Source: a virus
Taxonomy: Duplodnaviria; Heunggongvirae; Uroviricota; Caudoviricetes
Direction: 5' to 3' (one strand)
Virus record (IMG/VR): IMGVR_UViG_2579778797_000012
DNA length: 33,919 bases
This document shows, in pieces, positions 2,883 to 27,776 of this stretch. Below the pieces are notes generated by a model. It saw only the letters and a list, made by a program, of their open reading frames with translations, was not told the DNA's origin and made no database searches. Made by a program: the position numbers and the translations under genes. Numbering within the stretch: position 1 is the stretch's first letter; every line of letters starts with the position of its first letter.

Positions 2883-3209
2883 CTACGTGCGCCCCCAGCC
2901 CGCAACAATGATCAACATGCCGCAAAGCGCAATCAACGCACCCGTCCAGTCATAAAGAGTCAGTTTCACGCCATCCACAACGCGCAGCCACATCAACGCC
3001 GTGCAGACATAAACGCCACCATAAGCCGCGTAAACACGCCCACTCGCCGCAGGATGCAACGTTAACAACCAGACAAACAGCGCCAGTGAAATCCCCGCCG
3101 GAAGCAACAGCCAGATACTGGCGTTTCGTTTTAACCACAACCAGGGCAGAAAGCATCCAATAATTTCACACAGCGCAGTAGCAAAAAATAGTAACGTTGT
3201 TTTAATCAT
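2883..3209 (-). CDS. ynfA: YnfA, UPF0060-family inner-membrane protein
   Basis: [33 protein letters not shown]..., 108 aa from the internal Met. Hydrophobic four-helix pattern. Conserved K-12 neighbourhood (rspA-ynfA-ynfB-speG). Confidence 0.85.
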
Positions 3210-3343
3210 CTTTGTCACTTATTGACATCATGTATAGTTATAGGGCGACATAATATCATCAATATAAACACCCTCCTGGTACGTTTTGCGTTCGCAGTGG
3301 ATGGTGTAGAATCACCTTTAATCATTCATACAGGGAATGAATT

Positions 3344-3685
3344 ATGAAAATCACTCTCAGCAAACGAATCGGCCTGCTCGCTTTTCTGCTGCCTTGCGCA
3401 CTGGCATTGAGCACAACTGTTCATGCCGAAACTAACAAACTGGTGATTGAGTCTGGCGACAGTGCACAAAGCCGCCAGCACGCCGCTATGGAAAAAGAGC
3501 AATGGAATGACACGCGCAATCTGCGTCAGAAAGTGAATAAACGCACTGAAAAAGAGTGGGATAAAGCCGACGCCGCTTTTGATAACCGCGATAAATGTGA
3601 GCAAAGCGCCAACATCAATGCCTACTGGGAGCCCAATACTTTGCGCTGCCTGGACCGTCGAACTGGCCGCGTTATTACCCCCTAA
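3344..3685 (+). CDS. ynfB: YnfB, UPF0482-family secreted protein
   Basis: 113-aa ORF with signal peptide ([28 protein letters not shown]), matching K-12 YnfB. Confidence 0.85.
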
Positions 3686-10717: not shown

Positions 10718-11054
10718 GTGTCTCACTTTTGTCCCAATACCAATCCGAATCCACCCTTTGTCATCATTGAGAAATGGCAAGGAAGAAAAGGATGTTACTG
10801 CACGATTTGACAAATCCGCCAGAGCTATCGCATACTGATCGCACTGAACAAATAAGCGGTCTCCGCACCCGATAGCTTTGCGGCTTTTTTATGCCTGCAA
10901 TTTGGCATAGTTACATCCGTACAAAGGTCGGGTGGAGAGGCGTAATACAACACCCGCAAGGGGAATATGCCCAGAGCTTCTTATTTGGCTCAGTTGACAC
11001 CCGACCGCCAGCTACTAACTGGCGGTTATAAACTAAACAAATAAGGAGGTCATC

Positions 11055-11339: not shown

Positions 11340-11588
11340 CTATACTCCGCGCCGAGGCCTCGAAAACCTCCCAAAAGCGGATTAAACCAACCCCGTCAGT
11401 GTTGGATTTTTTATGCCTGTTATTCAGTGATAGCACAGTGTGCGGTCACATCCCCGATCAATGTCGGGAGGGCGACGAATACAACACCCGCAAGGGGAAT
11501 AAGTCCGCGGTATCTTTTGGGCCGTTTCGAGCCTCCCGGCACCACATCTTGTGGTGGCATTTCTCGAAAAAAGCCAAAGGAGGTCATC

Positions 11589-12218
11589 ATGACCACTCAA
11601 CTCATCCCTGTGTTTGAAGGTACAATCTCAAATGAACCTACGCTTCTGGTGAACGCGCGTGATTTGCATGGATTTTTAGAGGTAGGTAAAGATTTTTCTA
11701 ACTGGATACGGGCCAGGCTAAACGAGTATGGATTCGTAGAAAATTTAGACTACATTCTATTTTCGCCAAATTTGGCGAAAACTCCAGGCCGCCGCCGCAA
11801 GGATTACCACCTCACCCTCGACACAGCCAAAGAGCTTGCGATGGTTGAACGTAACGAAAAAGGCCGCCAGATACGCCGCTACTTCATCGAGTGCGAAAAG
11901 AAACTTCGCAACATTCAGCCAGTACAAGCAGAACCACAGCCGCAATTCACAGCCGAGGAAATAATCCTCCTCTGCTACATGCAGCTCTGGATGGAAAAAG
12001 CCCAGGACCTTAGCAAGCAGCTGTACCCCATAATGAAAGAGCTGAACTCCTCATACACGAACAAGCTGTATGACATTGCGTTTGAGACTATCTACATGGT
12101 GACGAAGAACAGAGATGTGCTACTGAGAGAGGCGGCACGGCTTGACCAGTCGAGTTTCGTAGTTCAGCGGGCCAGACCAATGCTGAAAAGCCTGCGGGCA
12201 AGACAATTTGAATTCTGA
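11589..12218 (+). CDS. AntA/AntB-type antirepressor-domain protein (209 aa from the RBS-supported start)
   Basis: MTTQLIPVFEGTISNEPTLLVNARDLHGFLEVGKDFSNWIRARLNEYGFVENLDY... RBS AAAGGAGG directly upstream of the ATG at 11589. The track ORF starting at 11427 is an RBS-less upstream extension. Confidence 0.55.
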   Translation: MTTQLIPVFEGTISNEPTLLVNARDLHGFLEVGKDFSNWIRARLNEYGFVENLDYILFSPNLAKTPGRRRKDYHLTLDTAKELAMVERNEKGRQIRRYFIECEKKLRNIQPVQAEPQPQFTAEEIILLCYMQLWMEKAQDLSKQLYPIMKELNSSYTNKLYDIAFETIYMVTKNRDVLLREAARLDQSSFVVQRARPMLKSLRARQFEF

Positions 12219-15033: not shown

Positions 15034-18000
15034 TTAATCCACTCCCACTTTTTTGTTGTACTCGCGGTTAAAGCGATCCACGGCAACCTTCATATCCCGC
15101 TCTACCGATTTCACCATCGCCGCCTGCTGCGCCAGACTGAGAGAACTGTCGGCATAAATGGCATCGCGCTGTTTGCGCAAATCCTTCAGTCTCTTCCGGG
15201 TATCCTGCATAAGCCCGTTCATCAACAATTTTCCGTTGTTCTCGTCAATGAACGCCGTTCTTTCTGCACCGGTCAGACTCTTCAGCTCTGCGTGATACTG
15301 CGCAACCTCTGTCATCCGGTCGTACATCTTCTGCTGGTCTGCATACGGCATCACCTCACCCGAAATTTTCCCCAGGAAGGGCACCTGCTGCTCCGGTATA
15401 TCAATACCGTTCAGCGATTTCACCGCCGCATCTGTGGTTTTGGAAATGAAGCGCCCTGTCCCTCCGGAGATATAGTCAATCCAGAATTTCAGCGATTCCG
15501 GTGTGATATCCACCGCGCCGGGACGATACTGGCTGCCACCTGAGAACGCATTCAGCCAGGATGCAAACGCCTTGTACGCCTCAGGCGTTGAACGTCTGCC
15601 CAGCTGGCTGTCCGGTTTCGGTGTGCCAAATGGCATGTTCTCCTGGTAAATCTGCGCCCCCATGAAGTTTTCATTCATGGCAAGGTTCGCAAACGGACGC
15701 AGAATGGTCGGCGCTGCATTTTTCAGCAATGCCCCGGACAGTGTTTCCGACGTTTCACTGCCCACAGGACTGAATGCCCCCAGGATACCACCGACAACAT
15801 TACCGGCAGCACGTGAAGCAGTCAGGTCGCCCGCTGCCACACCTTCAGCAGTATGCCCGAGCAGGAAGAAAACGTTGTACCCGTAAGGCAGAGGAATACT
15901 CCAGTACTCTCCGGCCTTGCCCCCGAACACCGATTTCATAATGACGAGGTTACGCTCTTTCACATGAGACGGCACCTTGTCATACCAGTTAACCCCGTCA
16001 TCATCCTCCCCCGCAACACTGCGGTTAAGCGAGCCAAGCAGATAACCCGCTCCCACAGCTGCAAGCGCGATTTTCTGCGGTACATTGAGATTCTTCCAGC
16101 GAAGGCGCTCCGGTAACGGCCCGTCGCCATTAAGATGTCCGAGCGTTCTCACCAGGTTTGCGGTCCCCTGAATGCTGGCGTTGGCAAACATATACAGCGA
16201 GTTCATCAGCGCTCCCTGCTCACCACGACGGTTAAAGTTCACCGTCATGTTTTTGGCAAGAGATGCCGCCTGCTGGCGTGACAAACCGGCATCACGGGCG
16301 TGTTTATAGGCAGAAAGACGCAGAGCGTTTTCAACCGCGCCGTTGGCATCCTCGACCAGGTTCAGGAACGAATGCCATGCACCGATACTCTGGCCTTTCC
16401 ATCCTCCCTTCGCCAGCGATACAAGGCGATCCATTTCCTTCTGCTGGCCTTCAAGGTCACCCATGTTAAACCAGCCGGTTTTACCTCCGTCCTCAACAAA
16501 CTCTTTCCACACCTTCTGCCACTGCGCACCGTTGCCCGTGAGGGTTTTACCACGCAGACTGGCGTATACGGCAGACATGGCAGACCGGCTGTCTTTCACC
16601 ACAGCCAGGGCGGATAAGTTATCCAGCCCTTTCAGTTTACCGTCGCTCCTTCCCTGCTCCGCCTTCAGGTTCATCACCGCCGTCTGCACGTCACGGATGA
16701 AGTTACTGACCAGGAATTCCGGGTTATACGACGTGTTCACCGTTGCCAGGAAGCGGTTAACTTTCCCCAGCGTGCGGATTACGGCGTTACTGGTTTCCGG
16801 TCCCATATTCTTCATCGCACGCATCAGGCGCGGATCATGGAGTTTGATGTAGTACGTTTTGCCGTTCTTTTTGGTGGTGAAGTACCGGTCTGCCATCATT
16901 GCCATCGGTACAGGACGTTCGACAACTTCGTGACGGGTTTCACCGGTTTCCGGAACAACACGCTCTGCAATCGCACGCATGGTGTCCGGTCGCTCATTGG
17001 TGAATACCTGCCAGTAATCCTTGTCTGGATTATCCTGTACCAGTTTCAGGAAGGCGTTACCTACTTCATTTTTGCGATTGCGGATCAGCGATTCGCTCAA
17101 GTCCTGTATCGCCTGAGTGGACGGAGACTGTGCGCGGGATGCACGCCCCATGGCCTGCCTGCTTTCACGTCCGCCGATAGTGAAGCCTTTACCTGTACGG
17201 GGCAGTGACACCACACCGTCAACATCCTGGCCTTTCAGAGGAACGTAGTAACGGTAGGCGTTCTGCCAGGCATCCACCACACCGCTCTCTTCCAGTCCGG
17301 CCTCACGGATAAGCTCACGGCGACGGGCCAGCATATCGTCAACAATCCCTGCCAGACGGTCATACTGTGCCTGTTTGCCACTGTTACGCACACGCTGCAT
17401 GATTTCCGCCGCTTCCGCGTTGGTCATCCCCGAACCGCCGTCCGGCATTTTCGGGTTGATTTTCGCGATATGCGCGTTACGTTCCGGCGCGTGACGGGCG
17501 TAGAGGTACTCATCCAGATCGGCCTGCGCAATTTTGTAGTCCGCCAGTAATTTAGCCAGCGGCTGAACATAGCGCTCCTTCATCACGTTCAGGTCGTTTT
17601 CCGCCTTCCCGTGGAAGAGTTCTTCCGCCATATAAGCGTTGTTACTGTCGTCTATTTTTCCGCCAGTTTTACGGATATTCTCCTGAACAGCTTTCAGCAC
17701 CTGGAATTTATCCTGCATCTGGCGCACAAAACGCGATGCAATTGTCTCTTCCGGTGTCAGACTGCTGGTACGGGAGTAATGCGGCCCCTTGCGAATATCT
17801 TCAGGATAGAGTATTTTATCCGCAGAGCCGCGATAAGAATGTTCCCCTTTGGGCAATTGGAGTCCTCTGTGCAGAAGGTTATCGCGGCTTAATTTTTCTC
17901 TCCGGTACAACGTTAACCCGGTCATTTCCATACTCTTCAGTTTTTTTCCATTTTCTGTACCGTAAACAGAAGCTACCTTGTTGATTTCCAGACGCGACCG

Positions 18001-21000
18001 GACAGCCTTCATGTGTACCGCTGACACCACCGGATCACCATTTTTATCCACGGCATCAAGCAGCATCACAACCGCATTTCTTTCTGTCGCTGAGTGGTAA
18101 ATTGCATCCGGATCGTGCATCAGTTCCGGTAGTCTCTCGATAACATCCATCGGCACCACATGTTTCACACCATTGGTGGCCTTACGCACAGTGTCGCGGG
18201 AGATAACCAGCGGCAAATCTGGTGCGCCAAGGTGACGCAATACCGGCGGCGTACGCCCGATGTTTACCGTTAAATCCGTTGAGCGCAGAGACTTCATCAT
18301 TCTGGCAAGGTCATCACGATAACGCTCGCCCTCACCTTCCGGCACTTTGAACGGATCAGGCTTACCGCTACGGGAGTACTGAGACGATGCGCCAGCGCCA
18401 TCCTCACGCGGCGTGTAACCTTCCCGCACACGCTGGCCTAACGTGCGAATAGTTTCGCGAACAAGTCTGATATCGTTCAGCTCTGTCGGCTTCAGTAACC
18501 CCGTGCGACGCAGTACCCCTTTGACCAGGGCAACAACACGCTCCCACGCCGCCACAAATTTATTCGGCTGTTTCTCCGCCATATGTGCCAGAAATTCACC
18601 CGCCTGCACTTCCGGTGATTCCTTACCATAAGACGCATCAACCTTACGCCAGGCTTCACGGATGGTGGCGTTATCACTGTCACGGGTTTTCAGCACGGTC
18701 TTAATAATCGTCTGATATTCCGCTGGCGTGACTACATGCTCCATTGCATGGTGGATAATCTCGTGACGCAGCTTCTCGCGAACGGTCCGCCCGTCAGGAA
18801 TGTTATCCGCCACCAGGACAATTTCACGTTTATCCGGACGATAGAACGCATGCCCCCTGCCGTAACCGTCGAACGATTCACCCGCCAGCGCTTCAGCCTC
18901 TTTCTGTGACTTCACCACGCGGACCTTCAGGTCACTGTCCTTAATGCCACTCATCACGCCACGGGCAACCGCTTCAACCTGCGGGACCGGGCTGCCTTTG
19001 GCTTCCGCACTGCGGTTAACATCCGAAATGAGATTGCCTTCAGGTGTGCGGGTCACGCCCTTACGGGAATAAAACGCAACGCCCTTGTCCGTCTCACGGG
19101 TTTTCAGCGTACTGAACAGGTGATCGAATGCATCACGAATACCGCCATCCAGTTCCGCATTCGTCGGATAAGCCCAGGTGTTATCTGTGTTGTGCTCAGG
19201 TGCCTTACGGATATTGACCAGATAATCATTCTCCACGCCAGCCGTACGCGCTTTATCCTGAACATAACGCTCAAAGGCACGCGCCGCCATTTCAACATCC
19301 GTTGACCAGTACGGTTTTGAGCGCACCTCATCGAGAAGCGCTGAACGACGCGGCATGTCACTGCTGTTGATCGCTTTCATCACGCCTTTAAACGCGTCGT
19401 AAACCTCCTGACGTACCGGATATTCCGCATCAACATATCTGCCGTCTTTAAATACGCGCCCGGCACGCTGTGCTTCCGTCATATAGTCGCCACCTGACGT
19501 GATCTTCCCGTCAGTGGAAACATCATAACGACCAAAATAATTATCCAGTGAATGGAACCATTCGTGGGCCAGCGCCCCCGGTCCGTTACCTTTTGTCAGG
19601 TTGATTGCCACCTCACCCGGCTCATAGTGTGCCGCCGCCTTACCCTTACCACGGGCACCAAAAGCAAGCCCAAGACGACCGTTCAGAGAAAGCGCTTTTG
19701 TCGGCACGTTCAGCACATCAGCCAGGTCATGCAGCGAGTCATAAGCCCGGTTCAAATCAGCCTGACGACGCGGACCTTCCACATAATTACCAAACTGCAC
19801 ACCACGAAAACCAAACGCATCACTGAACTGCTCCGGCGAAACATCCCCCTTGCGGCGTTCTGGTCCGGTACGATCGCGGTTGGTGGCGTTACGCTGCTCC
19901 TCACGCGAAATCTCCCGCATCTCCTTCACATGACGAACAAGCTCATCACGATGTGAATCAATGTACTTACGCGCATCACTGGCTGACTTAAAGCCACCTC
20001 TCACCCGCATTTTGTTTTTGCCATAAGCGATAAAAATATCGCCACTGCGGGTATTCCGGTAAACGTCAAAGCGGATTTTGTCATCCGGTGACGGTGCCGT
20101 TTTTTCATCTCCTTTCGCCTGTGACTTTTCCTCCAGCTCTGCAAACCAGACTTTCGCCTTTGTCAGTAATTCATCCCTGCTTTCCGAGAAAAAGAGGTTA
20201 GTCCCCTTATTGTCCTTATTGCGCAGTGAATAAAGTTTCTGTGGCGGATCGTAACGCTTCCCTCCTGCCGCCTGATACACACCCGATACCACCCGATAAG
20301 CAGAAGCCTTGTCCATCTGTGAGGGTGGCAGAGTGCGTAACAGTTGCCAGGTATCCGCGTAACGGGAGGGCATTCTGCCTTCCATCCATTCTGCGAGGCG
20401 TTTCGCGCTGACCGTTCCGTTCAGCATTTCCGATACACTGTGTCGTACTTTTTTTACGCTCTCCCCCCAGCCAGCCGTATTGTGTTTCGTCTTCGCCGGA
20501 ATATCGCTACGATACAGCGCTATCATTGCCAGGGTGTCAGCATCAGCCCCTTCGCTCGCCAGTTTTGCGTAGTCCGGTTTCGGGAACAGTTTGCTCAGCG
20601 GCTGCGTGGCATAATCCCTGTCTTCCAGCGTTTTACCCAGTGTTTCAGCAAGCTGTGCATAACGGTGTTTTGCCGCGCCCTTAATTTCTTCACCAAAGTC
20701 TTCAATTTTCGCACCACGCGCCTGCTGGTGAGTGCTCGGTTTATCTACCGGCATCGGCACCTCAGTATCCGGAACATCGGTTATGGTCTGGCGATTATCC
20801 CCGGTCTGTCTGCGTGCTTCTGCCTGCTGTGCCAGTTCCGGAAGGGAGTCACGAACCATACGAGGGAGTGATTCAGGCTGTGGCATATCAACCCCACGCT
20901 GACTTTCAGGTGCAGGAAGTCCTTCACGCACTGGTGCTGTGGCGTTCTGCTCATCCGGTGACGGCAGACCACGACGAACCGGTTCGCCCTCCAGTATTTC

Positions 21001-23397
21001 CCCCCGGCGACCAGCGGCATTTTCCGGTGCCTGCGCACGTCCTTTCTGGAAACTCTGGCCCTTCACCTCACCGGTTGTGGTAAAACGACCACCACGTCCG
21101 GCCTGATTTTCATCCGGCGTACGCGCCACTTCTCCCGGTAACGGATATCCCTGTCCGGGATGAATATCGCCGGGAGCGGGAAGGCGTGGACGCTCAGTTA
21201 ACTCCTGAGCTGTCGGACCGGCATCACCTTCAGCCATCTGTGAACGCACCAGCTCTTCCGCCGTCGGCACGTTGCCACGGGCAAGGCGGGCCTGCACTTC
21301 TGTATCATCTCCCGTAAAACCCCGGAATCGCGGGTCACGCATGAACGCTGGCTGCTCCATCGGATCAGCATCAGCAATACGCTCTCCGTCAGCCAGGGTG
21401 TTAATGGTTTCCGTTGCCACATCTTCAGAGAACGCAGGATTATCCATTTCAACGGCATACTGATTCTCACCTTTCTTCACTACGGACGGTTTCAGGCCGG
21501 TGGCGCTGGCATTGCGAAAAACATCGCTACCCATGGCGCTTTTCTCATCCGTGAAATAACGGTTGTCCGGACGCACCTTTTCAATGCGTTCTGCTGGTCT
21601 GGACGCACCACTCCCGTTAATTTCAATACGAACTTCATCCGGATCGCGGAACCGCACCGTCGGGTAAATACTCCCGTCGCCATCATCCGCATTTTCCGGC
21701 TGTGGCTGTGCCTCCGGTCTGGCCTCCTGCTGAGGGCGAAGCACATCACGGATAGCCTGTAACTGCTGCTCTTCAGTATCAGTACGCCCTTCCTTCAGGC
21801 TGAGTTTTCGGTATTCCTCAAGCAGTTCAGGGCGCGGCTTCGCCTTCAGCTCATCCATTACCGCCTGTCGCTTCGCCTGTTCATCCAGTTCATTCAACAG
21901 CTGGCTGGCGGCTTCCCGGCGATGAACGGCAGACGTGTCTCCCTCATGTGCCATATCCGCATCAGCATACTGTTCCAGAAGCTGCTCGCGATTCATCCCC
22001 TGCATGGATTCACGATGCTGTGCCACCGGATCAACCGGTTCGGGTTGCGGGGCTGCGTCGTCCTGCTGCACGGTTTCAGCATCACGCATGGCTGCTTCTT
22101 CTGCGGCCTGACGTCTGCCACGATATCCGGCAACCGCACCGAATGGAGCCCCCATCGCAGCACCAAAGGCTGCACCTTCGATCGTTGCGTCAGCCACGCC
22201 CTCCCACGGTGACACATCCATTCCGGCGGTCTCACGCAATGCCGTGTTTTCCTGATAGCGCGAATAGGCGTTCTGTGCCCCGTTAATTACGCCCTGTTCC
22301 GTGGCATTTCTGACAATGCCGCTTTTAACGGTCTTCGCTGTGCCTCGTGTCACCAGATTAAACAGTTGTGCGTCACCCAGTTTTGCCGCCATGGCATTCA
22401 CAGCCAGCAATTCAGGATCGGTTGCCAGCTGCGCGCGCACCTCATCGGCAACACGCTCTTTTGCCAGGTCCATTTTCTGGCGATCAGTAAGCTGTGCGTG
22501 CTGTGGATCTGCATCAATTGACAAAAACGTCTGCTGAAATTTCGGTGACTGCGCCAGCTCAGCGTAATCCGCATTAAGAACAGCATCTGCTGCCGACATT
22601 GCACTCTGCCCCTGTGCACTGGCTGTGGAATGGGTGATCAGGCCCGCATGGAAGAAATCCGTCATTTTTTTATCGACAGCTTCTGCTGCCAGTGCCGTGG
22701 CTCTTTCCGGCTGCACTCCTGCCGCGATGTATTTTTTCTCCAGCCCGGCGGTCAGCGTTCTTTTCAGTGCGACCTGTCCCACCTTTCTAACCACACCGCC
22801 AGCAACCAGATCAGGTACAAGCGCACCAATCAGGTTTACACCCTTCGTCAGCAAGACCGCAGAATCATCATAGCCTTCACTCATTGGCGTGTTCAGCGCA
22901 CGAACAGCACCCGGCGACATCTGATCTGTCAGCCATTCATCCGAGGCTTTGGCACCATCACTGACTGCCTTACCGGTTGCTTTCAGACCTTCACCGACAG
23001 TATCAGTGACCGCGTTTTTACCTGTTCCATCGGGAATGTTTTTAATCGCATCTCCAACAGAAGGTGGCGCGCCCAGTTCCTTTTGCGTGGAGGAAGGCGG
23101 CATGTAAACATCCGTCATGAAAGACGACAACCCGGCAAGCGTTTTTACAGGATTATTTACAAATCCATCACCGAGTCCACGGACCATCTCCCCTGTTCCC
23201 CGGACGGACTGGGCGAAACCTTTACCCATTGTTGGCAATACATCACCGAGGCTGAACGATGTGCTGTGATCAATGGCATTCTGCGGGTTGCTGAAAAAAT
23301 CCTGCCAGTAATTTTCTCCCGGCTGCTTAATGTTCAGGCTGCTGCGGTTCTGGTTACCCAATTGCGCTTCAGGGCGCTGCTCATCTGAAAAAGCCAT
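15034..23397 (-). CDS. Giant multidomain protein (2,787 aa) with two HExxH metallopeptidase-like motifs; putative phage polyvalent or effector protein
   Basis: Single uninterrupted ORF with GGAG 8 nt upstream of the ATG. HEWFH at nt 19552-19566 (about residues 1278-1282) and HEIIHH at nt 18748-18765 (about residues 1545-1550). Low-complexity A/Q/E/P-rich N-terminal third. Function inferred only. Confidence 0.6.
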   Translation of the reverse strand: MAFSDEQRPEAQLGNQNRSSLNIKQPGENYWQDFFSNPQNAIDHSTSFSLGDVLPTMGKGFAQSVRGTGEMVRGLGDGFVNNPVKTLAGLSSFMTDVYMPPSSTQKELGAPPSVGDAIKNIPDGTGKNAVTDTVGEGLKATGKAVSDGAKASDEWLTDQMSPGAVRALNTPMSEGYDDSAVLLTKGVNLIGALVPDLVAGGVVRKVGQVALKRTLTAGLEKKYIAAGVQPERATALAAEAVDKKMTDFFHAGLITHSTASAQGQSAMSAADAVLNADYAELAQSPKFQQTFLSIDADPQHAQLTDRQKMDLAKERVADEVRAQLATDPELLAVNAMAAKLGDAQLFNLVTRGTAKTVKSGIVRNATEQGVINGAQNAYSRYQENTALRETAGMDVSPWEGVADATIEGAAFGAAMGAPFGAVAGYRGRRQAAEEAAMRDAETVQQDDAAPQPEPVDPVAQHRESMQGMNREQLLEQYADADMAHEGDTSAVHRREAASQLLNELDEQAKRQAVMDELKAKPRPELLEEYRKLSLKEGRTDTEEQQLQAIRDVLRPQQEARPEAQPQPENADDGDGSIYPTVRFRDPDEVRIEINGSGASRPAERIEKVRPDNRYFTDEKSAMGSDVFRNASATGLKPSVVKKGENQYAVEMDNPAFSEDVATETINTLADGERIADADPMEQPAFMRDPRFRGFTGDDTEVQARLARGNVPTAEELVRSQMAEGDAGPTAQELTERPRLPAPGDIHPGQGYPLPGEVARTPDENQAGRGGRFTTTGEVKGQSFQKGRAQAPENAAGRRGEILEGEPVRRGLPSPDEQNATAPVREGLPAPESQRGVDMPQPESLPRMVRDSLPELAQQAEARRQTGDNRQTITDVPDTEVPMPVDKPSTHQQARGAKIEDFGEEIKGAAKHRYAQLAETLGKTLEDRDYATQPLSKLFPKPDYAKLASEGADADTLAMIALYRSDIPAKTKHNTAGWGESVKKVRHSVSEMLNGTVSAKRLAEWMEGRMPSRYADTWQLLRTLPPSQMDKASAYRVVSGVYQAAGGKRYDPPQKLYSLRNKDNKGTNLFFSESRDELLTKAKVWFAELEEKSQAKGDEKTAPSPDDKIRFDVYRNTRSGDIFIAYGKNKMRVRGGFKSASDARKYIDSHRDELVRHVKEMREISREEQRNATNRDRTGPERRKGDVSPEQFSDAFGFRGVQFGNYVEGPRRQADLNRAYDSLHDLADVLNVPTKALSLNGRLGLAFGARGKGKAAAHYEPGEVAINLTKGNGPGALAHEWFHSLDNYFGRYDVSTDGKITSGGDYMTEAQRAGRVFKDGRYVDAEYPVRQEVYDAFKGVMKAINSSDMPRRSALLDEVRSKPYWSTDVEMAARAFERYVQDKARTAGVENDYLVNIRKAPEHNTDNTWAYPTNAELDGGIRDAFDHLFSTLKTRETDKGVAFYSRKGVTRTPEGNLISDVNRSAEAKGSPVPQVEAVARGVMSGIKDSDLKVRVVKSQKEAEALAGESFDGYGRGHAFYRPDKREIVLVADNIPDGRTVREKLRHEIIHHAMEHVVTPAEYQTIIKTVLKTRDSDNATIREAWRKVDASYGKESPEVQAGEFLAHMAEKQPNKFVAAWERVVALVKGVLRRTGLLKPTELNDIRLVRETIRTLGQRVREGYTPREDGAGASSQYSRSGKPDPFKVPEGEGERYRDDLARMMKSLRSTDLTVNIGRTPPVLRHLGAPDLPLVISRDTVRKATNGVKHVVPMDVIERLPELMHDPDAIYHSATERNAVVMLLDAVDKNGDPVVSAVHMKAVRSRLEINKVASVYGTENGKKLKSMEMTGLTLYRREKLSRDNLLHRGLQLPKGEHSYRGSADKILYPEDIRKGPHYSRTSSLTPEETIASRFVRQMQDKFQVLKAVQENIRKTGGKIDDSNNAYMAEELFHGKAENDLNVMKERYVQPLAKLLADYKIAQADLDEYLYARHAPERNAHIAKINPKMPDGGSGMTNAEAAEIMQRVRNSGKQAQYDRLAGIVDDMLARRRELIREAGLEESGVVDAWQNAYRYYVPLKGQDVDGVVSLPRTGKGFTIGGRESRQAMGRASRAQSPSTQAIQDLSESLIRNRKNEVGNAFLKLVQDNPDKDYWQVFTNERPDTMRAIAERVVPETGETRHEVVERPVPMAMMADRYFTTKKNGKTYYIKLHDPRLMRAMKNMGPETSNAVIRTLGKVNRFLATVNTSYNPEFLVSNFIRDVQTAVMNLKAEQGRSDGKLKGLDNLSALAVVKDSRSAMSAVYASLRGKTLTGNGAQWQKVWKEFVEDGGKTGWFNMGDLEGQQKEMDRLVSLAKGGWKGQSIGAWHSFLNLVEDANGAVENALRLSAYKHARDAGLSRQQAASLAKNMTVNFNRRGEQGALMNSLYMFANASIQGTANLVRTLGHLNGDGPLPERLRWKNLNVPQKIALAAVGAGYLLGSLNRSVAGEDDDGVNWYDKVPSHVKERNLVIMKSVFGGKAGEYWSIPLPYGYNVFFLLGHTAEGVAAGDLTASRAAGNVVGGILGAFSPVGSETSETLSGALLKNAAPTILRPFANLAMNENFMGAQIYQENMPFGTPKPDSQLGRRSTPEAYKAFASWLNAFSGGSQYRPGAVDITPESLKFWIDYISGGTGRFISKTTDAAVKSLNGIDIPEQQVPFLGKISGEVMPYADQQKMYDRMTEVAQYHAELKSLTGAERTAFIDENNGKLLMNGLMQDTRKRLKDLRKQRDAIYADSSLSLAQQAAMVKSVERDMKVAVDRFNREYNKKVGVD

Positions 23398-24755: not shown

Positions 24756-25007
24756 TTAAAACAACGAACCAGCAAGACCACCGATGACTGCACCAATAGC
24801 GGCACCGGGAAGGCCACCAACGGCAGCCCCCACAGCAGCACCGCTACCAATTCCCGTTCCAATATTCTGCTTGTGCTGTGCTTTCTGTTGCGCCGCCATC
24901 ATCTTGTTTGACGCCTCAATTTCTTCACGTCGTCTGTCTGCATCACTTATTCCCTGTAATGCCTCACGCCGTGACTGATTCGCAATATCCAGTAAACCGT
25001 ATCCCAT
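24756..25007 (-). CDS. Hypothetical small protein with C-terminal glycine-zipper membrane segment (83 aa)
   Basis: C-terminus GIGSGAAVGAAVGGLPGAAIGAVIGGLAGSLF is a glycine-zipper-type hydrophobic segment. 9-10 nt gaps to both neighbours. Confidence 0.45.
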   Translation of the reverse strand: MGYGLLDIANQSRREALQGISDADRRREEIEASNKMMAAQQKAQHKQNIGTGIGSGAAVGAAVGGLPGAAIGAVIGGLAGSLF

Positions 25008-25016
25008 ATTTCCTCC

Positions 25017-25469
25017 TTACGCTGACACCAGTTGTCCGCCAACACTCAGTTGCTGTCTTGCAGGTGCAGAAGCCCCCGTCAGTATGTTCATCTGACGATC
25101 CTGCTCTGCTTCACGGATACCATTTTTCGCGCCAGCAATTGCCAGGGCATTACGTAACCCCAGCGTATTACTGTTGGGATTATCAGGTCGGTTAACGCCA
25201 TATCGTGCCATCTGGTTATCCTGCGCCATCTGCGCTGTACGGAGACTGGAAGTGGCAAGGCCGCCCACCCGGGCAAGCTGCGCATTCATCAGGCTGTTGT
25301 TCTCGCCAAGGTCAGCCAGCCTTGCCACGCGGGGCAAATATCTGGTTCGCCAGTCGTCGTATTGTTGGCGTGTCAGCGCTGCTGACGTCTGCCAGTCACC
25401 CTGTGGGCGGGCTGCGCCTGAATAACCAGCCCTTGCGAGAGTTTCGTATTTACCGTACTCCATAATCAC
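25017..25469 (-). CDS. Hypothetical protein (150 aa), Q/A/R-rich
   Basis: ORF overlapping the start of the upstream gene by 4 nt (translational coupling). No recognisable domain. Confidence 0.4.
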   Translation of the reverse strand: MIMEYGKYETLARAGYSGAARPQGDWQTSAALTRQQYDDWRTRYLPRVARLADLGENNSLMNAQLARVGGLATSSLRTAQMAQDNQMARYGVNRPDNPNSNTLGLRNALAIAGAKNGIREAEQDRQMNILTGASAPARQQLSVGGQLVSA

Positions 25470-26122
25470 AGTCTCCAGTTCTGAGCCTGATGCTGAATGG
25501 CATTAGCGCCGGTGCCAGGTGTTTTAGCACCGCCACTTCCTCCGCTACCGCCAGCCTTATGCATCGCATATGCACCAACCGCACCCAGACCAGCGCCAAC
25601 AAGAGAGGCTCGCCCCTGCTGTTTCGTAAACGCAGCCTGTGCGTCCGATTTAGCTTTTGCCAGACTGCTGTCTGCCAGCGAGTTAAAACTCTGTAACGCA
25701 TCTGCCTTCTGACCGGAACCGAGAGCCGCAACATCCTGTAGCCCGGCAATATATTTATCTGCCTGCGATACCTGCCCCCGTGTGGTCGTGTCAATCTGCC
25801 CGATCACCTGGTCGCTTTGATTTGCATCCATTACTGCATTAAAACGACCACTGGATGGGTCAACGCCGGACTGAGCAAGATTACCCGCCAGCTCCCTTCG
25901 CGCTTCACCAAACTGTTTCTGATACCCAAGATTTGTTGTGCCTGCGATATTTTCGTACTGCTGCTCACTGTTAAGGTCATCGACCTTTTTCATGAAGTTA
26001 TCTTCTGCCGGACGGAGAATATTTTTGTAATCCTGCCACCCTTTCCAGGCCACCTCTTCCTGTGCTATTTGCGCTGCTGTTGGTTTTACTTTGGTATCAC
26101 CACCACCTTTACTTCCGCCCAT
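25466..26122 (-). CDS. Hypothetical protein (218 aa), G/A/Q-rich with Gly-rich termini
   Basis: Starts MGGSKGGGDTK and ends in a GAGLGAVGAYAMHKAGGSGGSGGAK segment. First gene of a tightly packed four-gene set. Confidence 0.4.
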   Translation of the reverse strand: MGGSKGGGDTKVKPTAAQIAQEEVAWKGWQDYKNILRPAEDNFMKKVDDLNSEQQYENIAGTTNLGYQKQFGEARRELAGNLAQSGVDPSSGRFNAVMDANQSDQVIGQIDTTTRGQVSQADKYIAGLQDVAALGSGQKADALQSFNSLADSSLAKAKSDAQAAFTKQQGRASLVGAGLGAVGAYAMHKAGGSGGSGGAKTPGTGANAIQHQAQNWRL

Positions 26123-26140: not shown

Positions 26141-26162
26141 AAAAAACCCTGCCGGAGCAGGG
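26141..26162 (-). terminator. Rho-independent terminator downstream of the 133-aa gene
   Basis: Minus-strand CCCTGC-TCCG-GCAGGG hairpin (26147-26162) followed by T6 (complement of 26141-26146). Confidence 0.65.
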
Positions 26163-26215
26163 TCAGAATGTGAATTGCAATGTGGGTTTACGCTCGATGA
26201 TGAATACAGTGGCAG

Positions 26216-26617
26216 TCAGACTGCTATCCTGAACACCATGAAGCCATCCTCATCATCCGGCATTCGCTCAAAGCCCAGACGTTTTCCCAGCCGGATAAAT
26301 CCTCGTCTTGCCGTATGAAATTCGGCCCAGCGTCCGCCAGCCAGGCGGGTTAATGTCTTCACCTCCGGCAGATAACGCTCAACACTCTTACTCCCCGTAC
26401 ACACGCCCAGTAACACCAGAACATAAGGGATACCATCGTCACTGAGCACAGAACGCAGCACCAGAAAACCATCCGGCGCTTCAAAGCAAAACGCCTGCTT
26501 TTTAAGGCAGGCGTCTTTAACTTCATTCATAAATTCAGGGTTGCGGGAATTTCTCACAACACGCTGCATATACCGGAGAATTTTGTCGTCCATTCTCTCA
26601 CCTGAAACGGGTGCCAT
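26216..26617 (-). CDS. Hypothetical protein (133 aa), independently transcribed moron-like gene
   Basis: ORF bracketed by intrinsic terminators on both sides. No signal peptide and no recognisable motif. Alternative start at the internal Met (MDDKILRY). Confidence 0.45.
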   Translation of the reverse strand: MAPVSGERMDDKILRYMQRVVRNSRNPEFMNEVKDACLKKQAFCFEAPDGFLVLRSVLSDDGIPYVLVLLGVCTGSKSVERYLPEVKTLTRLAGGRWAEFHTARRGFIRLGKRLGFERMPDDEDGFMVFRIAV

Positions 26618-26995
26618 ATCGGCTGAACCTCAGCAACCAGTTGACGGGGACTTTCGTCCCCGTCGCGGTTTTCCTACTGCTTACACTGTAAGAACGCCGC
26701 AAACTCCGCTCCCCACAAATTCAGCCGGAACTCACACAACGAGCCGTGTAACATCCAGATGGTGAAGATTACCGTCATACAAATTGTGACGGTGATGAGC
26801 GATTTTTGCGACATAACGCTTGTCTCCTGAGTGGAGAGGCGCTAACCTACTACTTGTGAAGGTTGTACGGTCAGGGCCTCGGGTTAACATTAAAGTTGAC
26901 TCGGGGCCTTTCCACATCAGGCCTTCAGGTTCACCTTCCAGCCATCAGCCGAAAGGCACCCGCGCATAATCTACGATTTTTGCCCTGCACGGGCA

Positions 26996-27021
26996 ACAAA
27001 AAACCCGCCATCACAGCGGGT
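26996..27021 (-). terminator. Rho-independent terminator downstream of the lom-like gene
   Basis: Minus-strand ACCCGC-loop-GCGGGT hairpin (27003-27021) followed by a T-run (complement of the A-run at 26996-27002). Confidence 0.65.
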
Positions 27022-27044
27022 TATGACATGTTGTCGGATACAGA

Positions 27045-27776
27045 TCAGAATTTCAGGCCAATACCTACAACAACCCCGCTCGTGCGCCAGTCACCAGATC
27101 CGGAGCTTTCATACGCGACATCCATAGCAACACTTTCATTCAGGTTAAATTGTGCACCAGCAGCCCATGCAAGTGCTGTTTTTTTCGTACTGTTGCTTTC
27201 AGAAAATCCACCGGTACTGTTAATGTTGTCCTTAATTTTCAGGTCAGCGGTAACTTTAGCTACGCCCATACCAGCCATTGCATACACACTGAGGTATTCG
27301 TTAAACCGCCACGAAGGACCCGCTAACAGGCTCCAGTAATTCGCTCTGATATCTGTTCTTCCTGAAGCTGCCGGATTTTTAACCTCTCTGGATTCATCTC
27401 CTGGGTTAATATCAATAAATGCCTGCGCATTAGTCATAGAACGCGCCCATGTAAAAGATGTTATAACACCAATCTCATCCGTTATCTCATAACGATACCT
27501 GATGCTCATCCCCTGAGGAGATTTGCCTTTGCCATCATGCCCCCGGACAGAAGCATCTGCATATTCGCCTGAATTGAAGTAGTGTCTGTTTGTAAAACGG
27601 TTAAAAGTATCAAGATTATAAAGACTTAAATCCTTAACAAAATTGTTCAGTCCAGAGAGCTGAAGATGAGCGTATCCGAAAGAAACTGTACTGTCACCTT
27701 GTGCTGCACAGGCAGGGGCTGCTACAAAACTCATCACAAAAGTTGTGCACGCAAAAATAATTCTGGTATGTTTCAT
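27045..27776 (-). CDS. lom: Lom/Ail/PagC-family outer-membrane beta-barrel protein
   Basis: Signal peptide (MKHTRIIFACTTFVMSFVAAPACAAQG) and a C-terminal ...YESSGSGDWRTSGVVVGIGLKF closely resembling the lambda Lom / Ail-family terminal strand. Confidence 0.75.
   Translation of the reverse strand: MKHTRIIFACTTFVMSFVAAPACAAQGDSTVSFGYAHLQLSGLNNFVKDLSLYNLDTFNRFTNRHYFNSGEYADASVRGHDGKGKSPQGMSIRYRYEITDEIGVITSFTWARSMTNAQAFIDINPGDESREVKNPAASGRTDIRANYWSLLAGPSWRFNEYLSVYAMAGMGVAKVTADLKIKDNINSTGGFSESNSTKKTALAWAAGAQFNLNESVAMDVAYESSGSGDWRTSGVVVGIGLKF

Follow-up and report, generated by a model that had tools for sequence, protein, structure and literature searches.

A portable hok/sok cassette and a virion-module gene with a predicted GNAT fold probably share one interval of a Stx-type prophage

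The hok/sok locus of plasmid R1 and the hok loci of Escherichia coli chromosomes and prophages have in common a Hok/Gef peptide, an mRNA whose 5′ tac and 3′ fbi (fold-back inhibitory) elements fold back on each other, a Sok antisense promoter with its stem-loop, and a stem-loop behind the toxin stop codon; in the R1 system the last stem-loop of the truncated hok mRNA protects it against 3′-5′ exonucleases (PMC9841398). A related locus, hokW/sokW, is functional in Sp5 (PMC8621323). Small genes of a different kind, T7 gene 13 (138 aa) and P22 gene 14 (151 aa; DUF2824, "virion stability factor"), immediately precede the genes for ejection or internal proteins in podophages. Both are accessory rather than strictly structural. 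Here we describe positions 26,141 to 27,021 of a 33,919-nt stretch of viral DNA (IMG/VR record IMGVR_UViG_2579778797_000012; the whole stretch is called the window, and all coordinates are positions in it), where an open reading frame (ORF) of 133 codons follows a 427-bp leader. We put at roughly three in four the probability that this interval is a composite of two unrelated things, a portable hok/sok cassette and a conserved core gene of the virion module whose product has a GNAT (acyl-CoA N-acyltransferase) fold.

The preliminary description of this DNA had taken the ORF (26216..26617, minus strand) for a phage moron, expressed autonomously in the lysogen from a non-coding leader, bracketed by intrinsic terminators and possibly serving in host interaction or exclusion. 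The ORF, both minus-strand terminators and an additional CGGGGAC/GTCCCCG hairpin in the leader are all present, and 427 bp do separate the lom stop codon (27045) from the annotated ATG (26617). The leader is not non-coding, however. It contains a 46-aa Hok gene together with the RNA elements of a hok/sok locus, and, judged from its sequence, it is a complete type I toxin-antitoxin cassette occupying about 26996..26609 of the minus strand. An autonomous, lysogen-expressed element would thus be found in the interval, but it is this cassette and not the 133-aa ORF. Elements of the kinds named above for R1 and its relatives are recognizable, those of Sok as predictions:

26968..26996, minus: predicted hok promoter, with -35 TTGCCC (26996..26991), a 17-nt spacer and -10 TAGATT (26973..26968)
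26955..26961, minus: tac element GGGUGCC, the predicted 5′ end of the hok mRNA, at which the Rfam sok/hok-leader match begins
26952..26945, minus: UCGGCUGA, second part of the closing helix, next to tac; pairs with UCAGCCGA
26732..26917, minus: mok-like ORF of 61 aa, in another frame and overlapping the hok start
26674..26814, minus: hok toxin gene, 46 aa; Pfam HOK_GEF (PF01848), 33.2 bits against a cutoff of 22
26642..26665, minus: post-stop stem-loop, 3′ of the hok stop codon (the additional hairpin)
26626..26619, minus: UCAGCCGA, pairing with 26952..26945
26609..26615, minus: fbi element GGCACCC, the exact complement of the hok mRNA 5′ end
26820..26848, plus: predicted Sok antisense promoter, -35 TTGTCT, a 17-nt spacer and -10 TAACCT
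26855..26912, plus: predicted Sok antisense RNA of about 58 nt, with a 16-bp terminal stem-loop at 26873..26910 (-26 to -29 kcal/mol)

The 46-aa ORF also matches PHROG 251 ("MokW-like host killing") at 2.8e-24, while the NCBIfam models HokA and Hok match it below their own cutoffs (38.4 against 89 and 22.7 against 73, respectively). Its annotation as Hok/Gef already exists, supplied by PGAP in near-identical genomes, including H21, and by the depositors of phage Lyz12581Vzw. Compared with the 50-52 residues of the known Hok proteins, the peptide is short. The locus is separate from hokW/sokW of 933W and Sp5, since hokW lies near attR and the window Hok is 37% identical to HokW of 933W. The 933W record has no annotation in the 429 bp that separate lom from L0129 (45428-45856; 7429-7857 of locus L009 in our numbering), though it annotates hokW, mokW and sokW near attR.

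GGGUGCC pairs with GGCACCC in the minimum-free-energy fold of the 366-nt RNA (z = -5.16), and in an RNAalifold consensus built from 27 distinct copies with 74-100% identity the closing helix is kept at columns 1-7/378-384 and 10-15/368-374. Each pair of that helix holds in at least 24 of the 27 copies, and the changes found there are of the wobble type only. Compensatory changes occur at 17 other pairs, three of them in the post-stop stem-loop (AU to GC in three copies, CG to AU in four and GC to AU in one), and in a divergent copy from Salmonella GGGUGCUUU and AAAGCACCC compensate each other at the seventh pair of the tac/fbi helix. Because a stem-loop of this kind caps the processed hok mRNA of R1, we surmise that the additional hairpin of the preliminary description is that stem-loop. 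The predicted hok promoter is kept in the copies of Sepvirinae type and of P2 type (TTGCCG-17-TAGATT in the latter) and stands 7 nt upstream of the conserved GGGTGCC; the complement of the predicted Sok promoter, AGGTTAGCGCC, is invariant in all 27 copies.

By analogy with plasmid R1 and with the work on hokW, a constitutive promoter would produce a hok mRNA in which pairing of the 5′ tac with the 3′ fbi keeps translation silent. As in R1, trimming of the 3′ end back to the post-stop stem-loop would open this mRNA, the short antisense Sok would trigger its destruction and, once Sok has decayed, the membrane toxin Hok would be made.

Several observations weigh against this reading. The hok leader opposite the predicted Sok scores 35.6 bits against Rfam RF01794 (E = 4.4e-6), short of the family's gathering score of 59; at gathering thresholds Rfam gives no match in the interval, and sok/hok-leader appears only in a relaxed search. 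The tac/fbi helix is almost invariant within the hok subfamily, so that the case for it consists of conservation, wobble-compatible changes and one compensation across subfamilies, not of rich covariation. The mok-like frame was discarded as a conserved feature, since no more than 5 of the 27 copies keep it open past the start of hok; its function in the window is therefore doubtful, and the regulation of hok may differ in detail from that of R1, where hok translation needs the mok frame. The hok and Sok promoters, the read-through into the ORF discussed below and the 3′ processing are all predictions. Other matches of the relaxed Rfam search (Trp and Leu leaders, isrK, and Hrs1 at the lom terminator) were dismissed as chance matches to a terminator hairpin. 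A run of G residues near codon 35 of hok varies in length in loci L042, L044 and L058, which frameshifts the C-terminus of Hok; the toxin may have been inactivated repeatedly, and the G run might serve as a phase-variable tract. The hok gene of the window is intact.

Homologous hok cassettes are present in 1750 of 5426 complete E. coli genomes, about a third. The same cassette is the last gene of P2-like prophages (L010-L012 and L014, at about 1500-1960), after ogr, at the serS, ihfA and yidD attachment sites. These copies, about 80% identical, align to 26981..26609 of the window and no further, stopping at the last base of fbi, and about 25 nt past fbi they carry a strong terminator of their own, as a Salmonella copy (L006) also does. 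In Sepvirinae copies GTTTCAGGTGAGAGA-ATG follows fbi in place of a terminator, and, apart from weak intragenic hairpins, no terminator-like site was found on the minus strand between 26609 and 26164. The cassette of the window has lost the post-fbi terminator of the other copies, a further difference from the known hok loci. The hok leader of L012 has a 20-nt tandem duplication.

With that terminator lost, transcripts from the hok promoter should run through the next gene as far as 26164..26145. The anatomy thus suggests read-through from hok into the GNAT-fold gene in the lysogen; upon induction the gene would be expressed from the late operon, its transcripts passing the terminators by an assumed Q-type antitermination. 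Expression of the ORF in the lysogen, as had been proposed, is then possible through co-transcription with hok. The leader has a single conserved promoter-like site, TTGCCC-17-TAGATT, and it belongs to hok.

The boundary of the cassette bears on the start of the gene behind it:

26216..26593, minus: GNAT-fold protein, most likely coding region, 125 aa from Met9 (annotated as 133 aa from 26617)
26595..26602, minus: Shine-Dalgarno sequence GGTGAGAG, serving the Met9 start (ATG 26593..26591)

The fbi element takes in the G of the annotated start codon ATG (26617..26615) together with codons 2-3 of the 133-aa ORF. In loci L059-L063 about 1.65 kb of cargo is inserted 4 nt past fbi, so that the Met1 segment stays with hok; the gene itself is 95% identical, and the one start codon open to it is a GTG in the place of Met9, preceded by the same Shine-Dalgarno sequence. 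From the fbi overlap, the end of cassette homology and this cargo gap we surmise that the gene proper probably starts at Met9 and yields a product of 125 aa (26593..26216). The first eight annotated codons are most likely the fbi region of hok. The phrog_610 profile and the 123-124-aa homologs of Salmonella, Yersinia, Pectobacterium, Brenneria and Chania begin at residue 9, and the P2-type copies have no ATG at the place of the annotated Met1. Loci L016-L018 are without hok and lom, and 22 nt left over from the cassette 3′ end persist there with the fbi decayed; in L016 codons 2-8 differ at three of seven residues, as against 12% for the whole protein. The cargo of L059-L063 contains a gene for a 398-aa YadA/Eib-like trimeric-autotransporter adhesin with its own terminator (L059 6702-7898).

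On the other side of this question, the Met1 frame is open in all copies of the E. coli clade, about half of the wider family has an N-terminal segment of 10-17 residues, and AlphaFold2 (AF2) models residues 2-4 as a strand resembling beta-1; these points speak for the annotated start.

The second component of the interval is best seen in its setting. Every gene of the window between 23.4 and 33.9 kb is on the minus strand, and the region is 95-99.9% identical to Shiga toxin (Stx)-converting short-tailed phages (Sepvirinae, 933W-like) and to E. coli prophages; of the 961-bp interval, 80% or more is found in 185 phage records and in 402 of 5426 complete E. coli genomes. Along the coding strand the order is tail-tip gene, 93-aa gene, 208-aa gene, lom/ail (27776..27045), hok/sok with the 133-aa ORF, then genes of 218, 150, 83 and 420 aa and a giant gene of 2787 aa (15034..23397). 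The families of the ORF and of the four genes after it are called o133, o218, o150, o83 and o420 below. The immediate neighbours are:

27776..27045, minus: lom/ail, Pfam Ail_Lom 7.9e-33
27002..27022, minus: intrinsic terminator of lom/ail from the terminator scan, a stem of 8-9 pairs with a U-run, -12.2 kcal/mol
26145..26164, minus: intrinsic terminator 3′ of the GNAT-fold gene from the terminator scan, the first downstream of the hok promoter, -16.5 kcal/mol
25466..26122, minus: o218 gene, the downstream partner (218 aa, MGGSKGGG...; ORF76 of Sp5) and first of the internal-protein cluster

The region has nine terminator-like sites, against 2.4 +/- 1.7 in shuffled sequences.

Ten proteins of the window were mapped onto 80 IMG/VR loci and four other loci. 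In these 84, bar a few that are truncated or incomplete, the order tail-tip ... o133-o218-o150-o83-o420 is kept, and o133 occupies the same position in every one, whether from E. coli, Salmonella, Yersinia or metagenomic phages. A member of o218 follows it in 83 of the 84, no o218 match being reported for L028. The ORF is neither absent nor unconserved among its relatives, at 50-100% identity. Three distant loci (L103, L112 and L114) were reached by a back-translated motif search, and in these too a gene of the o218 family follows directly, after gaps of 20 nt and 8 nt and with a 4-nt ATGA overlap, respectively; three single distant proteins have no relatives in IMG/VR. In many divergent loci the gap to the o218 homolog is only 5-20 nt, and the spacer of about 96 nt with the 26164..26145 terminator, found throughout the E. 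coli clade, is missing.

The genes upstream are more variable. Both hok and lom occur only in the E. coli clade and, in the order hok-lom-gene, in Salmonella; Yersinia has neither, the GNAT-fold gene there overlapping the upstream tail gene by 26 nt. In L016-L018 the GNAT-fold gene and the o218 homolog are separated by a toxin-antitoxin pair of Fic/Phd type, encoded on the other strand (2946-3547). With hok, lom and the adhesin on one side and this pair on the other, both flanks of the gene are cargo insertion points. The gene itself has a GC content of about 0.52, similar to the 0.50-0.58 of the downstream core genes and unlike the 0.33-0.46 of lom. Neither sporadic presence nor a deviant base composition, both expected of a moron, was found; a terminator does stand downstream, and the only conserved promoter-like site upstream is that of hok. 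By position and composition, then, the 133-aa ORF is a conserved core gene of the Sepvirinae-type podophage virion module and not a moron.

The gene is the same as L0129 of 933W, ORF75 (ECs1237) of Sp5 and phrog_610, all listed as hypothetical; the DNA is 95-97% identical and the neighbours, lom and ORF76-ORF80, are the same. An in-frame single deletion of ORF75 in Sp5 still forms plaques and lysogenizes, and ORF75 is neither one of the nine essential genes nor one of the two whose mutants have reduced infectivity, one of these two being ORF76, homologous to o218; tail formation requires ORF79 and the giant ORF80 (PMC5155283). The published deletion keeps ATG-GCA-CCC, that is, the fbi element of hok (PMC5155283, supplementary primer table), and hok folding should therefore be undisturbed, so that the mild phenotype speaks to the protein only. 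In the laboratory, where K-12 was the only host of the published assays, the GNAT-fold gene would be dispensable. In size and gene order, o218 is reminiscent of the gp14/gp7-like ejection proteins of other podophages, o420 of the gp15/gp20-like and the giant protein of the gp16-like ones (PMC8954989).

The preliminary description could place no motif in the 133-aa protein, and searches of Pfam, NCBIfam, PADLOC and PDB sequences and profiles indeed return no match. The fold, however, is recognizable in a predicted structure, which had been suggested as a test: AF2 gives a predicted local distance difference test (pLDDT) score of 87.9, rising to 94.4 with a deeper alignment, and Foldseek against the PDB returns GNATs at 9-18% identity, many of the closest structural matches being N-terminal acetyltransferases. 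The model predicts a minimal GNAT fold, with a V-shaped beta4/beta5 core flanked by alpha3 and alpha4. Its likeness in predicted fold is to the small N-alpha-acetyltransferases Naa20, Naa10/Ard1, Naa50 and RimI and to the mini-GNAT AcrVA5; at 125-133 aa it is smaller than the 150-170 aa that are typical. Motif A of GNATs (Q/R-x-x-G-x-G/A, between beta4 and alpha3, binding the pyrophosphate of coenzyme A, CoA) corresponds in the family to S-x-x-G-x-(A/G), with G in 17 of 51 members and A/G in 35 of 51. The best-conserved residues (F100, T/S102, R104, K105, G106 and R109) cluster in the model at the beta5-alpha4 junction. GNATs contact CoA at this junction.

Three things weigh against the GNAT assignment: it derives from a predicted structure only; none of 51 relatives has a Pfam match either, and no acetyltransferase was found in the PDB sequence and profile searches; and in the window protein itself the motif-A position is degenerate, reading C-T-G-S-K-S.

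Our best guess at the function, a speculative one, is that the GNAT-fold protein modifies the neighbouring ejection-type proteins by acyl or acetyl transfer, or chaperones them. It would then be an accessory factor of the internal or ejection-protein module, expressed mainly from the late operon. One particular form of this idea comes from the N-termini of the neighbours. In the o218 family 22 of 23 distinct N-termini read MG followed by a Gly-rich stretch (MG(K/G)GGG...), the exception, MNMGKGGG, being probably a mis-called start; one distant homolog begins MSKGGGS. The o83 family has MGYGL in 17 of 19 distinct N-termini (MGYGL(L/I)D), outside the E. coli clade most loci give o150 the N-terminus MGQASD, MGYASD or MGVASD, and o420 has MGVQGL in one clade. 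These Met-Gly N-termini are kept across clades only 44-59% identical (including L004, L006, L065-L099, L103, L112 and L114), whereas only 2 of the 14 right-hand coding sequences of the prophage, o218 and o83, begin with MG. Taken with the structural matches to N-terminal acetyltransferases and the close coupling of the genes, the pattern suggests these N-termini as targets of the mini-GNAT, which would work as an N-terminal acyl- or acetyltransferase on the exposed Gly of o218, o83 and, in some clades, o150 and o420; in this specific form we consider the idea improbable. If the protein were required for the function of o218, deletion of ORF75 should mimic that of ORF76, and no such defect is reported (PMC5155283); the mild phenotype thus counts against a strict requirement for N-terminal modification. 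Were the idea correct, modification would tune the membrane insertion or stability of the ejection proteins during DNA delivery, and bacterial viruses would have an analogue of the N-myristoylated penetration proteins of animal viruses. A literature search on the locus names and on acetylation of ejection proteins returned nothing relevant.

Other explanations can be set against the view that a core gene encoding an active or chaperoning GNAT-fold protein stands beside an unrelated cassette. The protein might be a non-catalytic pseudo-enzyme, limited to chaperoning the assembly of the internal or ejection proteins or to serving them as an adaptor, much as small genes in that position may do in other podophages. 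We find this possible, if rather doubtful: the Q/R-x-x-G-x-G/A loop is degenerate, no GNAT profile matches, deletion is tolerated and the gene lies directly upstream of ejection genes in a position equivalent to that of T7 gene 13 and P22 gene 14, but the most conserved residues are at the beta5-alpha4 junction where GNATs contact CoA, many family members keep G-x-A/G at motif A, and the likeness to gp13 and gp14 is one of position only, without homology. Homology was in fact rejected, with hhalign probabilities of 0.2% for T7 gp13 and 2.8% for P22 gp14, and 2.1% for the gp14 comparison of profile with profile. DUF2824 members give no GNAT signal in Pfam; the DUF2824 profile weakly matches the N-acetyltransferase PseH (4xpk_A, E = 0.17) along some 95 residues, and P22 gp14 might also be GNAT-like. 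A small phage acetyltransferase directed at a host or defence target, as AcrVA5 is, or a tRNA-acetylating toxin of the TacT/AtaT type would share the fold. This is a decidedly unlikely identity for the window protein, whose structural matches to such proteins are no better than those to generic GNATs, which has neither a PADLOC match nor an adjacent antitoxin-like gene, and whose gene belongs to a late structural operon, where it is coupled to a virion gene, and not to an early or accessory region.

The remaining two explanations differ in how they connect the ORF with its surroundings. As an autonomous moron with its own promoter, expressed in the lysogen for host interaction or exclusion, the ORF would account for the bracketing terminators, the promoter-like site upstream and a moron-rich neighbourhood in which cargo inserts on both of its sides. 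The leader, however, is a hok/sok cassette to which that promoter belongs, PADLOC offers no match, and every related locus examined has the ORF in the same place, in many cases closely joined to the core gene that follows, and its composition is core-like; we regard this explanation as most improbable, and no evidence supports a host-interaction or exclusion role. Only a little better, and still very improbable, is the proposal that hok and the ORF form one unit, the ORF product modulating Hok/Sok or the tac/fbi fold controlling translation of the ORF. In its favour, the annotated ATG and fbi overlap, the want of a terminator between the two genes should make their transcript bicistronic, and some 400 E. 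coli genomes and 185 phage records share the arrangement. Yet hok is missing beside members of the ORF family in Yersinia, the L016-type E. coli prophages and every divergent locus, the hok cassette occurs without the ORF in P2-like prophages, lom stands between hok and the gene in Salmonella, and cargo can separate them. A toxin-antitoxin or regulatory pair of hok and ORF was thus rejected on synteny.

With the composite of cassette and core gene as the preferred reading, Stx-type prophages carry a second hok/sok locus besides hokW/sokW, of which the Sp5 morphogenesis paper makes no mention; it is relevant to studies of prophage maintenance or induction-linked lysis in enterohaemorrhagic E. 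coli. The annotated start of WP_000035556 / L0129 / ECs1237 is probably inside the regulatory RNA of its neighbour, and deletions or tags built on it may disturb the control of hok. The sequence-orphan phrog_610 (217 representative clusters) gains a predicted fold and a fixed genetic partner, and with these a testable idea. A hok/sok locus is an already annotated kind of element; what is new is the predicted GNAT fold, the probable mis-annotated start and the fixed partnership with Met-Gly proteins. Current understanding is not overturned by any of these points.

The 83-aa protein (24756-25007) of the internal-protein cluster has a C-terminal tail resembling a glycine zipper, GTGIGSGAAVGAAVGGLPGAAIGAVIGGLAGSLF, and is called "bacteriocin" by PGAP in a near-identical genome. 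Within a cluster of virion internal proteins it is more likely a membrane-active ejection component than a bacteriocin.

Strain S1-CAM-02-A (PGAP annotation) is not collinear with the window to the left of about 23.4 kb. Its giant gene is truncated by IS3 and that of the window is intact, for which reason we do not call the window prophage defective. On the plus strand, Rfam sRNA-Xcc1 (RF02221) matches above its gathering score at 10926-11014 and 11463-11548 (69.1 and 73.4 bits, respectively), the second match falling within the start of a 263-aa ORF (11427..12218). The ORFs corresponding to this region are annotated as antA/AntB antirepressors in a related, non-collinear genome.

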